64,000 nt of DNA. Origin: Clostridiales bacterium UBA3678 (GTDB lineage: Bacteria; Bacillota; Clostridia; TANB77; CAG-508). The notes beneath the pieces were generated by a model. The model was not told the origin of the DNA and made no database searches. It was given only the letters and a program-made list of their open reading frames with translations. The translations under genes and the position numbers were made by a program. Each line of letters begins with the position of its first letter. The first letter of the stretch is position 1. Shown here one piece after another: positions 15,107 through 27,876 of this stretch. The DNA lies in contig DFJF01000006.1 of the NCBI GenBank assembly GCA_002372935.1, positions 35,405-99,404 of the forward strand, given 5' to 3'.

Positions 15107-16279
15107 ATGGCAACCAATCCAATGCAAAGAAAATCAAGAATATCATTTTTATTAGGAATGTTATTAATGCTGATAATAGCAGCATTAGTAATAGCATTAT
15201 TATATATGAAAATACAAGAGAAAGAAAAAGAAATAAAAACTTATCAGCAATCAACATTATATGCTTATGTTCTAAGCCAGGATGTTAAATCAGGACAAGC
15301 ATTAACACCAGAAATGTTTTCACTTCAACAAGTTTCTAAATCAGCAGTACCTGCAGATGCTTCAGGAAATATAACAACAATTTTAGAAGCATATAAATTA
15401 ACTGATAAAGAAGGAAGACAAATATATTTAAAGTCAGATGCTAGTGAAAATGCACAATATTATTACTATATGATAGGCAATAAAGAACATCAAATTTATA
15501 CAGAAGGAAATGTTTTAGCTACAGCTTTAAAAGCTGGAGATTCGGCTTATTTTTATGCTGGAGACAATAATACAGAAAGAACAGATGTAATAATTTCAGA
15601 AAATGCTGTAGTAGCAAAAGTAGATATGAATAAAAATACAATAATTACTAGAAACCTTATTTCAAGAGGGGGAGAAGCAACTACAAATGATTTAAGAAAG
15701 GCAGAATATAATGTTATAGATTTGCCAGTTGATTTAGCACCAGATGAATATGTAGATATAAGATTTACATTACCTACAGGAGAAGATTATATAGTTGCAT
15801 CTAAAAAGCAAGTTTCAATACCAGTAGTAGATGGCGTATATTCAACAGATACAATTCAAATGAAATTAAATGAGAGTGAAATTATGTGTATGTCATGTGC
15901 AATAGTAGAAAATTATAAAATACCAGGATCAAAATTATATGCAGTAAGATATTCAGATGCAGGAATACAAGATGCTGCAACTACAACATATATTCCAAGT
16001 ACATCAGTAGTTAATTTGATAAAAACTGATCCAAATGTTGTAAATAGTGCAATAAAAGCATTAAGAGAACCAAGAAAACCTGAAATAGACAATGCACTAA
16101 ATGCAAATAGTGAAGATGCTTCAGATAATATATCTGAAGGAAGTACAAATAGCAAAGAATCTGCAAAAGAGCAAAGAAAGTTGTATTTACAATCATTGCC
16201 TGCAACAACATCTTCAACAACAACATCTTCAGCAACTACATCAGCAACTACATCAGCAACAACATCAACATCAAATTAA
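15107..16279 (+). CDS. CpaB/RcpC-like pilus assembly protein (N-terminal TM, SAF-like domain, Thr/Ser-rich tail)
   Basis: TM segment ISFLLGMLLMLIIAALVIALLY, then a SAF-like YAYVLSQDVKSGQALTPEMFSLQQVSKSAVPADA. The C-terminus is TTSSTTTSSATTSATTSATTSTSN. Confidence 0.55.
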   Translation: MATNPMQRKSRISFLLGMLLMLIIAALVIALLYMKIQEKEKEIKTYQQSTLYAYVLSQDVKSGQALTPEMFSLQQVSKSAVPADASGNITTILEAYKLTDKEGRQIYLKSDASENAQYYYYMIGNKEHQIYTEGNVLATALKAGDSAYFYAGDNNTERTDVIISENAVVAKVDMNKNTIITRNLISRGGEATTNDLRKAEYNVIDLPVDLAPDEYVDIRFTLPTGEDYIVASKKQVSIPVVDGVYSTDTIQMKLNESEIMCMSCAIVENYKIPGSKLYAVRYSDAGIQDAATTTYIPSTSVVNLIKTDPNVVNSAIKALREPRKPEIDNALNANSEDASDNISEGSTNSKESAKEQRKLYLQSLPATTSSTTTSSATTSATTSATTSTSN

Positions 16280-16300
16280 TGTTTAAGAAGGGATTTATCT

Positions 16301-16993
16301 ATGAAAAAAATAGGATTTATAGGCGGAGCGGACAAAACAAATTTAATAATGTATATTGCCAAAGTTCTAGAAGATTTAAATAAAAAGGTAATAGTAGCTG
16401 ATACTACATTAATGCAAAAAACTAAATATGTAGTACCAACATTAGATCCTACAAAATCATATATTACAGATTACCAAAATGTAGATTATGCAATTGGATT
16501 TGAAAGCATAAGTGATATAGGACAATATCTAGGTGTGAAAAATACAAATTCAACAGAAACTTGGCCATATGATTATATGATTATTGATATAGATAGTGCA
16601 TCTGCAATAGAAAATTTTGAAATTGATGATGGTTTAGATAATTATTTTGTAACCACTTTTGATATATATTCTTTAAAAAGGGGAATGGAAATATTAAAAA
16701 ACCTTCCATCTACAATGACAATGTCTAAAATTTTAATGAATTACAACATAAAAAAAGATGATGAAGAATATCTATTGTATTTATCAGCAGACACAAAAGC
16801 AATTTGGAATGATTTTAGTCTATATATTCCAATACTAGATGAAAATGAGCAACTTATGGAAGAAAATCAAAGAGTATATAGACCAAGATTAAAAAAATTA
16901 ATTCCAGAATATCAAGATGGAATTATATATATTGTTCAAAATATCATTAAAGAACAGAGTGTAAGTAGAATAAGAAAGATGATTAAGGAGTAG
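16301..16993 (+). CDS. ParA/MinD-fold protein with a deviant P-loop (TadZ/CpaE-like position)
   Basis: KKIGFIGGADKTN lies where a KGGxGKT P-loop is expected. DYMIIDID is Walker-B-like. Confidence 0.45.
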   Translation: MKKIGFIGGADKTNLIMYIAKVLEDLNKKVIVADTTLMQKTKYVVPTLDPTKSYITDYQNVDYAIGFESISDIGQYLGVKNTNSTETWPYDYMIIDIDSASAIENFEIDDGLDNYFVTTFDIYSLKRGMEILKNLPSTMTMSKILMNYNIKKDDEEYLLYLSADTKAIWNDFSLYIPILDENEQLMEENQRVYRPRLKKLIPEYQDGIIYIVQNIIKEQSVSRIRKMIKE

Positions 16994-16995
16994 AG

Positions 16996-26018: not shown

Positions 26019-26027
26019 ATTTGAATT

Positions 26028-26055
26028 AGCTTGTAATTTTATTACAAGCTTTTTT
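26028..26055 (+). terminator. Rho-independent terminator inside the filament locus
   Basis: Stem agcttgtaat / attacaagct with a 3-nt loop, followed by a T5 run. Confidence 0.75.
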
Positions 26056-26145
26056 AAACATATTTAAAACTCTTATAAATGCAGTTTGATTGATTCAAAC
26101 TGTATATATAAAAGCTTTAGATTAAATTTGAAAGGAAATAAACAT

Positions 26146-27876
26146 ATGAAATTACAGTATTTAACAGTTATATTTATTCTAATAATAATGCCAATAATAA
26201 TTGTATATTCAACATATTTAGACACACAAGTTTCAATTATTAGACAGGAAGCAAGTTATGATTCTAGTTTATATAATTCAACTTATGATGCAATTAAATC
26301 TTTCCAAATAAATGCTATAAATACTACATTATATACACCAGAGACAAGAGTAAATATAATTACAGCATCAGCTAATACATTTTTCAATTCTTTATCTACT
26401 GCATTAAAGTATCAAGGAAACAAGTCAGATGTAATGAAAGAATATGTTCCAGCTGTTGTTTTTACAATGTATGATGGATATTATATATACTCACCATTTA
26501 TTAATACCCTAACTGGTGTACAAGATTATCCTGATAATGATCAAAACCCTGCTCATCAAAATCAAGATGAAGTTGATGATAAATATGCAGATGACAAAGT
26601 ATATAATGGATTAAAACCATATGTTTCTTATACTGTAAAATATCTAGTAAATAGAAATATTTATTATATAACATATACAATGGATAATTATATTTCTGTC
26701 GATAAATTTGATAGCAGTAATAATTATGATCATAGAGAAGGATATTTGGTAAGTGGAATAAGAAAATCAGGTGAATCTTACAAATATGATAATGTTACAT
26801 TTAATAAAAGCGACTCAGAAGCTTTATCAGAATACTTATATTTAAGTGATACTGAAAAAGGAATATACTATTACGCAACTATTGATGGTACAAAATATTA
26901 TTATGAGGGTAATAATACTCATAGCAGGAATGTAAACCAGTGTGGTGAAAATGATAAAATTTTTTATATAAATAATTCAGGTACAAAAACATATCAAGTT
27001 CAAGAATATAAAAATAACAAGGAAAGATTTACATTATATTATAATAGAATATTTAACAATAATAGTGCATATTGGTATTATGCAAAGGCTTATGAATTTA
27101 CAGAGTGGGTAAGAAGTAATTTATCAGGATTGACAATTTCTAATATAGATAAAACAAACTCAAGTTATTTAAATTATGATTTCGCTAATGTTGGAAATAT
27201 ATTTGATGGTACAATTCAATATTCAAATTCAAATTTTAATCAGCATAGAAAAGATGTAATAAGAGCAGTAATATCAACAAATTTATCAACAGCAATTCAA
27301 GGATTCAGAAGATTTTCAAACTCTAATGAACAATTTTTAATGCCAATGATTTCTGATGATAATTGGGAATTACTTGAAAATAATATATGTGTTGCAACAT
27401 TTTTGCAAGGATTGAAGTTTGGAAATAAAACATACAACAGTTATGCAGTTGTACCAAATAATTATAACAAAGAATATGTTGATGAAAATGATATATATTT
27501 ATTAACCACGAATTATGAGTTTGCAAAAGTAAATAATACAGCAGTTAATAATTCAAATCTAGCAAAAAATTTAAAGTATCAGCCAGGAGTTTTAAAAATA
27601 AATATAAAAACAAGAAGAAGTTCAAATGGATATTATAACCCATTAAGTTATTATGATACTTCGGGTAAATTACAGCCATATTTAGGAGATTACACAAGTA
27701 TATATGGAAGTAGTGGAACAGCTGATGTTAGTACAATAGATATGTATAGATATGTTGAAAGATTATCAGATGTAACAAAAAAACAAGTATATTATACTGC
27801 TCTTGCAAGAGAGAGAGAAAGTTCATATAAATTTATAAATGATAATGCTGATGATGTATTAAAAAATGAACAATAA
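26146..27876 (+). CDS. Large (576 aa) N-terminally anchored Tyr/Asn-rich extracytoplasmic protein, filament-associated by position
   Basis: MKLQYLTVIFILIIMPIIIVYSTY anchor. I recognise no catalytic motif. The start is set at the Met 8 nt after AAAGGAAA (the track ORF starts at 26086). Confidence 0.4.
   Translation: MKLQYLTVIFILIIMPIIIVYSTYLDTQVSIIRQEASYDSSLYNSTYDAIKSFQINAINTTLYTPETRVNIITASANTFFNSLSTALKYQGNKSDVMKEYVPAVVFTMYDGYYIYSPFINTLTGVQDYPDNDQNPAHQNQDEVDDKYADDKVYNGLKPYVSYTVKYLVNRNIYYITYTMDNYISVDKFDSSNNYDHREGYLVSGIRKSGESYKYDNVTFNKSDSEALSEYLYLSDTEKGIYYYATIDGTKYYYEGNNTHSRNVNQCGENDKIFYINNSGTKTYQVQEYKNNKERFTLYYNRIFNNNSAYWYYAKAYEFTEWVRSNLSGLTISNIDKTNSSYLNYDFANVGNIFDGTIQYSNSNFNQHRKDVIRAVISTNLSTAIQGFRRFSNSNEQFLMPMISDDNWELLENNICVATFLQGLKFGNKTYNSYAVVPNNYNKEYVDENDIYLLTTNYEFAKVNNTAVNNSNLAKNLKYQPGVLKINIKTRRSSNGYYNPLSYYDTSGKLQPYLGDYTSIYGSSGTADVSTIDMYRYVERLSDVTKKQVYYTALARERESSYKFINDNADDVLKNEQ

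Follow-up and report, generated by a model that had tools for sequence, protein, structure and literature searches.

Gene content of the locus

The window analysed here is a 64,000-nt stretch of the genome of Clostridiales bacterium UBA3678, a member of the bacterial order TANB77 (contig DFJF01000006.1, positions 35,405 to 99,404), with a G+C content of about 27%. Its open reading frames (ORFs) place 13 tightly spaced genes, here called p1 to p13, between positions 15107 and 27876 of the plus strand, with intergenic gaps of 2–127 nt when counted from start codons that are supported by a Shine-Dalgarno (SD) sequence. The cluster is a copy of the pilus gene cluster described by Kim et al. (2024; Nat Commun 15:10726; PMC11680825), whose protein numbers are used for comparison, and it probably encodes a strongly diverged filament machine of the Tad type. 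The genes are as follows.

15107–16279, plus strand: p1, CpaB/RcpC-like protein with a transmembrane (TM) helix at residues 14–32, a SAF domain and a Ser/Thr-rich C-terminal tail; counterpart of protein 927
16301–16993, plus strand: p2, TadZ-like protein of the ParA/MinD fold with a degenerate P-loop, GGADKT
16996–17850, plus strand: p3, CpaE/TadZ-like protein of the ParA/MinD fold, without a canonical Walker A motif; probable start codon ATG at 17005
17858–19876, plus strand: p4, membrane-anchored secretion ATPase of the CpaF/TadA-FlaI branch; probable start codon ATG at 17876, giving 666 amino acids (aa)
19899–21989, plus strand: p5, all-helical protein with eight TM helices in the platform position, 696 aa; probable start at 19908, giving 693 aa
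22004–22828, plus strand: p6, leaderless pilin-like protein beginning MENASKALIIAGG..., 274 aa; TM helix at residues 8–26 and the shared motif after it
22840–23259, plus strand: p7, leaderless pilin-like protein beginning MENASKAILIAGG..., 139 aa; identified by its SD sequence, TM helix and paralogy
23316–23753, plus strand: p8, paralogue of the pilin-like domain, 145 aa; MKK-type N-terminus resembling a signal peptide or anchor
23835–24275, plus strand: p9, leaderless pilin-like protein, 146 aa (the gene callers agree); SD sequence AAGGAGG before an internal ATG
24347–24772, plus strand: p10, leaderless pilin-like protein, 141 aa; one TM helix and paralogy
24791–25432, plus strand: p11, leaderless pilin-like protein beginning MENVSDAIILAG..., 213 aa; SD sequence and TM helix
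25497–26018, plus strand: p12, protein with one N-terminal helix beginning MGDSAMVIVAIFLAAIL..., 173 aa; the best-conserved small component
26146–27876, plus strand: p13, large protein rich in Asn and Tyr, with a single N-terminal helix; 576 aa when read from an SD-supported ATG; counterpart of "pilin 938"

By hydropathy analysis, p5 has eight TM helices and p1 a single one; p4 and all of p6 to p13 have exactly one each, at the N-terminus. A preliminary description of the window, made from its letters alone, had reported a one-strand block of 13 genes encoding a CpaB-like SAF protein, two ParA/MinD-fold proteins, a membrane-anchored CpaF/TadA-like ATPase, a large platform protein and eight consecutive proteins with a single N-terminal helix. 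This outline is borne out by the reading frames, the predicted topologies and the homology searches below, apart from the family assigned to the platform protein. The following ORF, p14 (28065–30401), has no TM helix by hydropathy and is kept beside the cluster in 1 of 83 related loci; the end of the cluster is therefore placed at p13, and p14 was rejected as a member. It encodes a Lys/Glu-rich protein of 778 aa without a family match, and stands beside the cluster only in the source species and one relative.

The locus as a copy of a published pilus cluster

Kim et al. described a Tad-like pilus cluster of 10–14 genes in 122 of 129 TANB77 species. In HRGM_Genome_2725, genes 927–938 encode CpaB (927, one TM helix), TadZ (928), CpaE (929), TadA/CpaF (930, one TM helix), a 693-aa protein with eight TM helices that is divided into TadC-like and TadB-like halves, pilin-like proteins with a single TM helix (932–937) and a 621-aa protein (938), whose N-terminal quarter (about 25%) is TadE/PilV-like by structure (PMC11680825). 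The published sizes of 358, 231, 280, 640 and 693 aa, six small single-TM proteins and 621 aa compare with 390, 230, 281, 666, 693, ..., 576 aa in the window, and the gene order, sizes and TM patterns match Table 1 of that paper one for one; the 13 genes of the window, versus 12 published, remain inside the paper's stated range. Because order, sizes and topology all match, with p13 corresponding to 938, the locus was already known: it is another species' copy of the TANB77 pilus gene cluster, from the same clade of uncultured, low-GC gut Clostridia, and not a new one. The preliminary description had proposed a distinct and possibly undescribed branch of the type IV filament superfamily; the branch is distinct, since its ATPase forms a discrete and remote family, but it had already been published. 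The paper makes no comment on an absent Flp pilin, an absent peptidase or the leaderless N-termini described below.

A membrane-anchored, CpaF-like ATPase

The N-terminal TM helix of p4 (residues 8–26) is followed by a Lys-rich stretch, which places the ATPase domain in the cytoplasm, and an N-terminal TM anchor recurs in 30 of 32 diverse homologues. The first ~270 residues, consisting of the TM helix and a domain with the motif IDGVSGGVSG, are specific to the p4 family. Its catalytic motifs are intact: the Walker A motif is GEQGCGKT, and G391, K392, E459 and H485 are invariant across the 32 homologues.

Profile searches rank CpaF first among the secretion ATPases. In particular, a phmmer search of the PDB with p4 finds CpaF (8rkd, E=7.5e-9), and a family profile built from the 32 diverse members again has CpaF as its top match (E=8.6e-23), with 83.7 bits for CpaF, 47 for FlaI, 36 for archaeal GspE2, 31 for PilT, 27–31 for VirB11, 28 for GspE and 24 for PilB. 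The best NCBIfam match of p4 is "TadA family conjugal transfer-associated ATPase", and a TadA/CpaF-family ATPase, as expected of a Tad pilus, is thereby present, though below the NCBIfam and Pfam cut-offs (17.7 bits on T2SSE; 38.6 bits on TIGR03819 TadA, versus a cut-off of 373). By these profile comparisons, p4 is a remote branch of the TadA/CpaF ATPases and not an orthodox member. Within a library of 1.84 billion representatives clustered at 50% identity, only 1249 proteins match the p4 family at E<=1e-3, 370 of them also at E<=1e-30, and almost all are 600–650 aa long; judged from these matches, the family is a discrete group far from ordinary CpaF.

CpaB-like and ParA/MinD-like proteins

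The protein encoded by p1 scores 23.8 bits on SAF (PF08666), versus a Pfam cut-off of 21, and matches TIGR03177 (pilus_cpaB) at E=7e-6 over residues 18–96, which cover the N-terminal third of that model; its score on the CpaB model is 25 bits, versus a family cut-off of 71. A SAF-domain protein of the CpaB/RcpC kind, also expected of a Tad pilus, is thus encoded first in the block. Residues ~365–390 form a low-complexity Thr/Ser/Ala tail (TTSSTTTSSATTSATTSATTSTSN) that may be a wall-spanning or glycosylated linker.

Neither p2 nor p3 has a canonical Walker A motif. The p2 family profile matches MinD (1ion, E=0.023; 4v03, E=0.44), the p3 family profile matches Get3, CooC and ParA at E-values of 0.01–0.12 and CbiA (PF01656) at E=0.07, and the two families align with each other by hhalign at E=0.0024 around a Walker-B-like YDxVxVDxD motif. 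These matches are marginal and coherent, and p2 and p3 are accordingly described as ParA/MinD-like at that level; the published assignments agree, with the p2 counterpart falling in COG1192 and resembling TadZ by structure and the p3 counterpart resembling CpaE by structure (PMC11680825).

A single large protein in the platform position

The eight TM helices of p5 are accompanied by conserved soluble blocks at about residues 144–264 and 539–655. An AlphaFold2 (AF2) model, based on an alignment with 37 homologues, is all-helical, with a predicted local distance difference test (pLDDT) score of 77.9 and a predicted template modelling (pTM) score of 0.65. The preliminary description had divided the protein into two T2SS-F-like halves and read it as fused TadB and TadC. 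A single large eight-TM protein is indeed present, but the T2SS-F homology could not be reproduced. A relaxed Pfam scan finds no T2SS-F domain (PF00482) at E<=1 in p5 or its 37 homologues; p5 has no sequence match in Pfam, NCBIfam or the PDB, and its family profile has none in the PDB. Further, hhalign finds no match between the p5 family and the window's own PilC and no internal repeat between the N-terminal and C-terminal halves of p5, and Foldseek searches of the PDB with the model return only noise (best E=0.33, with a PilC architectural model in 44th place at E=4). The TadC-like and TadB-like halves of the 693-aa protein have been reported solely from a Foldseek comparison with predicted structures (PMC11680825). 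Together with gene position and topology, that report suggests that p5 may be homologous to the T2SS-F platform proteins.

Leaderless, pilin-like subunits

Five of the eight proteins encoded downstream of p5 (p6, p7, p9, p10 and p11) have N-termini that read MENASKALIIAG or a close variant of it. An SD sequence lies 6–10 nt upstream of each of these Met-Glu-Asn (MEN)-type ATGs, except that of p10, which is separated from an SD-like AAGGAG by a stable hairpin, and none of the MEN-type ATGs has an in-frame start codon upstream of it. For example, the SD sequence of p6 is AAGGGGG, 7 nt upstream of its ATG, and the p5 stop codon is only 14 nt before that ATG. Because the SD sites fix the start codons and no upstream in-frame start is available, the five proteins have no leader peptide.

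The motif MENA[ST]KAL[IL][IM]AG occurs 3–5 times per locus in about 80 related species. Its sixth residue varies among K, D and E and the helix is not preceded by Gly, so that −2 lacks a fixed basic residue and −1 lacks Gly. Type IV filaments are characterised by pilins whose class III signal peptide is cut off by an A24 peptidase; here that peptide is absent, as the starts are leaderless and there is no conserved cleavage context. Short leaderless N-termini are likewise present in Paenibacillus (MENLQTYLKWVIG and MENISTGLKWAIG), in metagenomic relatives (among them L086 and L087; one relative reads MSNGWKLFLMAASG), on the Thermobacillus plasmid pTHECO01 (MSTNASKALYFGA) and on a plasmid of Clostridium argentinense (MDSPVVKKIFLAL).

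Beyond the N-terminus, the paralogues share the motif FNxKFxxY...G.xV just past the TM helix and a C-terminal YNxxTGxV strand. These extend to p8, which has the motifs IDDFNLKYEKY...TGREI... and ...YNSKGRV in common with the MEN proteins, and whose counterpart (protein 934) is predicted to have a signal peptide (PMC11680825). p9 is 37–40% identical to p10 and is a candidate for the major subunit. An AF2 model of p10, built with the window's paralogues only, has a pLDDT of 60 and consists of the N-terminal helix, two more helices and then a beta-sheet; Foldseek finds no significant match to it. The p12 protein has a median identity of 49% across related loci, and its orthologues (~176–184 aa) occupy the equivalent position in Paenibacillus, on pTHECO01 and pBsph, and in C. 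argentinense. Shorter homologues of the p13 N-terminal part, ~320–340 aa long, close the module on Bacillales and Clostridium plasmids. No Pfam or NCBIfam pilin family, including TadE (PF07811), matches p6–p13 or their Paenibacillus counterparts, and the downstream proteins have no match to the Flp family. Pfam and NCBIfam gave almost no matches across p1–p14 and the Paenibacillus counterparts. With the ATPase family a discrete group and the Flp and TadE families unmatched, the refuting conditions set by the preliminary description leave its reading of the parts standing. Searching the literature for pilins that are leaderless or peptidase-independent returned no relevant paper.

The missing Flp pilin and peptidase, and a separate type IVa pilus cluster

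The preliminary description had noted that the locus lacks both a Flp-type pilin and an A24 prepilin peptidase (TadV), and had argued that no short pilin gene had been missed by its ORF cut-off; these absences hold under closer inspection. No ORF with the Flp-type G|xxxxEY motif is present in the locus or its gaps when ORFs down to 20 aa are included, and the locus, four contigs from the same species and the related loci that were inspected contain no A24 peptidase. Moreover, neither a Flp gene nor an A24 peptidase appears, by annotation or Pfam calls, in any of the ~90 related loci examined.

The window's only A24-family gene (42010–42819) lies not in a Tad arrangement but inside a separate, complete and canonical type IVa pilus (T4aP) cluster of the Gram-positive type, at 38472–48017, which also includes two single-TM proteins in addition to the following genes.

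38472–40085: PilM/N fusion
41439–41885: T4aP pilin, leader MKGNKG|ITLIAL, without Glu5; 17 bits on N_methyl
42010–42819: PilD-like protein of the A24 family; A24_N_bact 101 bits
42864–43301: T4aP minor pilin
43842–45485: PilB, Pfam 342 bits
45543–46646: PilT, Pfam 159 bits
46677–48017: PilC, Pfam 98 bits

The C-terminal part of the PilD-like protein, with six to seven TM helices, has no match to Peptidase_A24 (PF01478) even at E<=1, and the protein may be a divergent or inactive prepilin peptidase. Its GxGD motif is apparently replaced by IID, and plausible Asp positions recognised by eye are in IDLERRE and IIDTIRL.

Distribution and conservation

Close relatives of p4 number more than 7300 in a set of 5.8 billion proteins, the best 120 all being at least 80% identical, and at least 582 species genomes carry the gene; the 80 listed all belong to uncultured gut Clostridia, including CAG:780, CAG:389 and Candidatus Merdicola, the last a member of family CAG-508 in the order TANB77 (PMC13106387). 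Median identity among related loci is 79% for the ATPase, 64% for the platform-position protein and 27–49% for all other parts. The core is, as far as such identities indicate, under strong purifying selection.

Kim et al. called the cluster exclusive to TANB77, from a search that covered gut genomes only (PMC11680825). Outside the order, the next relatives are cultured Paenibacillus with an ATPase identity of ~50%, and tblastn finds full-length members of the ATPase family on at least 30 large Firmicute plasmids. The carriers are Thermobacillus, Cohnella, Paenibacillus (including Paenibacillus polymyxa M1), Lysinibacillus (including pBsph), Sporosarcina, Alkalihalophilus pseudofirmus OF4, Cytobacillus, C. 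argentinense, C. botulinum, C. beijerinckii and Butyrivibrio proteoclasticus. A synteny survey, as proposed at the outset, finds the core order kept in TANB77 relatives, in Paenibacillus and on Firmicute plasmids. Beyond TANB77 it runs from the SAF protein through one further gene, a ParA-like protein, the ATPase, a ~680-aa platform protein and leaderless small proteins to a ~180-aa and a ~330-aa protein. The system is not exclusive to TANB77.

On plasmids, the module (pTHECO01, pBsph, C. argentinense pRSJ17_1 and C. botulinum p12/29) is often followed by genes for SLH or cell-wall-binding proteins, DUF5704 proteins (~1000–1200 aa), GGDEF proteins and HD phosphohydrolases, a set that suggests surface adhesion controlled by cyclic di-GMP. 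Its flanks include NlpC/P60 hydrolases, a type IV secretion system (T4SS) coupling protein, a replication-relaxation protein and a topoisomerase or single-stranded DNA-binding protein (SSB), and pBsph-like plasmids are experimentally conjugative (PMC13239906). C. botulinum p12/29 has a cell-wall hydrolase gene within the subunit block and a lepB gene nearby. In Paenibacillus anaericanus, the module (1713–7185 of its locus) lies directly downstream of type VII secretion genes that encode an EssC-like FtsK/SpoIIIE ATPase (1329 aa) and a WXG100 protein.

Comparison with known filament systems

The locus most resembles the Tad/Flp pili (type IVc) of Caulobacter, Aggregatibacter and Bifidobacterium, with which it shares an ATPase nearest to CpaF, a SAF protein, putative TadZ/CpaE analogues, a single ATPase without PilT, and small subunits with an N-terminal helix encoded downstream. 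Unlike those pili, its profile scores for TadA (38.6 versus 373 bits) and CpaB (25 versus 71) are far under the family cut-offs; it has no Flp pilin with G|xxxxEY, no TadE (PF07811) or T2SS-F (PF00482) match and no TadV; its ATPase has a TM anchor and the ~270-aa N-terminal extension; its subunits are leaderless; and one eight-TM protein replaces TadB and TadC.

With the archaeal type IV filaments (ArlI/ArlJ; Aap, Ups and Epd), the locus shares one large protein in the platform position, subunits without Glu5 and an ATPase for which FlaI and archaeal GspE2 come next after CpaF in the profile ranking; unlike them, it lacks a class III signal peptide, PibD, FlaK, EppA, ArlH, ArlF, ArlG and ArlX. 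Reading the locus as an archaellum was rejected, as FlaI scores 47 versus 84 bits for CpaF and no KaiC-like ArlH or other Arl family is present. A T4SS of the VirB11 kind was also rejected, with VirB11 at 27–31 bits and no VirB4, type IV coupling protein (T4CP) or relaxase in or beside the window's locus. The T4aP cluster of the same genome belongs to the same superfamily, but it differs in its high Pfam scores for PilB, PilT and PilC (342, 159 and 98), its KG|ITLIAL pilin leader, its PilD-like protein and its PilM/N, none of which is found at the locus studied here.

Promoter-like sites and RNA structures

The preliminary description had placed the block behind one promoter, which finds no support: 146 promoter-like sites were counted versus 130 +/- 10 in shuffled sequence, without enrichment, and a strong internal promoter-like site lies ahead of p8 at 23264–23292 (TTGACA, a 17-nt spacer, TATTAT and a TG extension). 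Its remark that the largest gap contains a terminator and an SD sequence agrees with the features below and with the SD-supported ATG of p13.

26028–26050, plus strand: terminator-like hairpin and T-run, in the largest gap, between p12 and p13
24295–24336, plus strand: stable, perfect 42-nt hairpin in the p9–p10 gap, between the SD-like AAGGAG and the p10 ATG

The p9–p10 hairpin has a minimum free energy of -19.7 kcal/mol (z = -5.25), and none of 200 shuffled sequences was as stable. Its folding would bring the SD sequence to a distance of ~10 nt from the p10 start codon, and the hairpin could be a stabiliser or an attenuator after p9. As a conserved regulatory element it was rejected, since comparable hairpins are present in 3 of 20 equivalent gaps.

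Neighbouring genes

The window copy is surrounded by housekeeping genes, and the neighbourhood of the cluster is not conserved among relatives. A 6S RNA is found at 7550–7758 (85.6 bits) and an NFACT/RqcH-type protein at 13083–14891 on the minus strand (346 bits), while a SpoVT/AbrB-like ORF was recognised by eye at 30418–30978 on the minus strand. A small acid-soluble spore protein (SASP) gene is called in conspecific contigs at the equivalent of window positions ~11.6–11.8 kb. These four features plausibly fit the genome of an endospore-forming member of the Clostridia, and with the SASP gene next to the locus and the SpoVT/AbrB-like ORF, the earlier label of spore former is plausible. At 31114–31217, a 21-nt unit, GTTCTTTTTTGAAAAGGGACG, is repeated in tandem about five times, upstream of the gene for a dockerin-containing protein (31408–32751); these copies surfaced as overlapping hairpins in the terminator scan.

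Interpretation and alternative explanations

Overall, the locus is best read as a chromosomal TANB77 pilus gene cluster that encodes a strongly diverged Tad-type (type IVc-like) filament machine of a monoderm bacterium, with a probability of roughly 0.7. In such a machine, a hexameric CpaF-like ATPase would be held at the membrane by its own N-terminal helix and docked on p5, the eight-TM protein of the platform position, a pair of ParA/MinD-like proteins with degenerate catalytic sites (the TadZ/CpaE analogues) would position or scaffold it, and the CpaB-like SAF protein would form an extracytoplasmic collar. ATP-driven movement of the platform would then raise p6, p7, p9, p10 and p11 into a helical fibre packed by their conserved N-terminal helices, with p8, p12 and the large p13 as putative minor or tip subunits, although the roles of individual subunits are assigned only provisionally. 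On this model the product would be a filament whose subunits, leaderless from Met-Glu-Asn, undergo no N-terminal processing and are most likely assembled without a prepilin peptidase; the proposal would account for the lack of a Flp-type pilin or TadV alongside the system. The most likely function is that of a peptidase-independent, Tad-type filament for adhesion. The TANB77 copy is chromosomal, apparently vertically inherited and strongly constrained, which fits adhesion or cell-cell contact in the gut, with p13 as the host-exposed component.

Several observations weigh against this interpretation. The small subunits match no known pilin family or fold, the AF2 model reaching a pLDDT of only 60, and p5 has no detectable T2SS-F signal in any of the sequence or structure searches run. 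The positive-inside rule is ambiguous on whether the subunits' N-termini face inward, with a net charge of about zero on the N-terminal flank of the helix and one to two Lys/Arg residues on the C-terminal flank. The PilD-like gene lies 14 kb downstream of the locus, making processing in trans conceivable. Further, no filament has been observed, the order TANB77 being uncultured. Pilin 938 activates dendritic cells via TLR4 and improves the anti-PD-1 response in mice (PMC11680825), an activity obtained with recombinant protein that is silent on assembly.

Three other explanations were considered and ranked below the Tad-type filament. The archaeal class III cleavage site is [K/R][G/A/S]| followed by a hydrophobic residue, and the "SKA|L" of the subunits resembles it; a Tad-type pilus whose subunits are processed in trans, for example as MENASKA|L after Ala7, could be served by the PilD-like protein (42010–42819) of the same window, by another A24 enzyme encoded elsewhere in the genome or by a signal peptidase. 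A lepB gene is found near the module on C. botulinum p12/29. Prepilin peptidases are well known to be shared between systems (PMC6668835). However, no Gly stands before the helix, position 6 may be K, D or E, the corresponding Paenibacillus segment is MENLQTYLK|W, and no cleavage context is conserved. MEN comprises the most conserved residues, which suits a functional, mature N-terminus better than a leader that is cut away. Even at E<=1, PF01478 does not match the membrane domain of the PilD-like protein, and no peptidase lies beside the module in ~90 loci, plasmid-borne ones included; processing in trans is considered unlikely.

The presence of the module on at least 30 large Firmicute plasmids raises the prospect of a mating-pair or aggregation apparatus of mobile-element origin, that is, an accessory of plasmid conjugation, serving as a contact pilus in Gram-positive mating, which was domesticated in TANB77. 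The module adjoins a T4SS coupling protein and a replication-relaxation protein on pTHECO01, and NlpC/P60 hydrolases, topoisomerase and SSB on the C. argentinense and Butyrivibrio plasmids; it is carried by pBsph, whose relatives are experimentally conjugative (PMC13239906), and the best NCBIfam match of its ATPase refers to conjugal transfer. The TANB77 cluster, by contrast, is chromosomal and single-copy, occurs in ~95% of species (PMC11680825) and has housekeeping genes on its flanks; its neighbours differ between relatives, and the window's locus has neither a relaxase nor T4CP nor VirB4 nearby. Moreover, a role of the module in transfer would be hypothetical, and the GGDEF, HD and SLH neighbours on plasmids fit regulated adhesion equally well, so that this origin appears improbable. 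It is more doubtful still, and very improbable, that no fibre is built and that the single-pass proteins form a short pseudopilus or piston, a static envelope complex for T2SS-like export, or are plain secreted or anchored surface proteins. Such an arrangement would suit small proteins with no detected pilin family or fold, the signal-peptide-like N-terminus of p8, the size of p13 and p6, which are large for pilins, and the ambiguous membrane orientation. But five paralogues have a near-identical N-terminal helix over 12 residues in ~80 species, the pattern expected of subunits that co-assemble on one platform; the ATPase, the SAF protein and the ParA-like proteins together make up the core of Tad assembly; and the cluster has no conserved companion genes that might encode cargo.

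Extending the Tad-type filament interpretation beyond TANB77, the module can be proposed, tentatively and at less than even odds, as a peptidase-independent class of type IV filament that occurs across the Firmicutes, with leaderless Met-Glu-Asn subunits, a membrane-tethered CpaF-like ATPase and a single eight-TM platform. It would be inherited vertically in TANB77 and carried elsewhere on large plasmids, some of them conjugative, in Paenibacillus, Lysinibacillus, Clostridium and Butyrivibrio, perhaps for mating or aggregation.

Significance

The abundance of the gut clade that this cluster marks predicts the response to immune checkpoint therapy, and the last protein of the cluster has reported adjuvant activity (PMC11680825); because of that activity, there is practical value in learning what the machine builds. 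Relative to that paper, the new elements are the possible peptidase-independent assembly and the wider, partly plasmid-borne distribution. The latter opens the question to experiment for the first time, as TANB77 members cannot be grown and the cultured carriers include Paenibacillus species and Lysinibacillus sphaericus with pBsph. To our knowledge, no type IV filament characterised so far does without a prepilin peptidase. If the interpretation is true, subunits that are born leaderless would be an exception among type IV filaments, and would show how little of the canonical toolkit suffices to build one.

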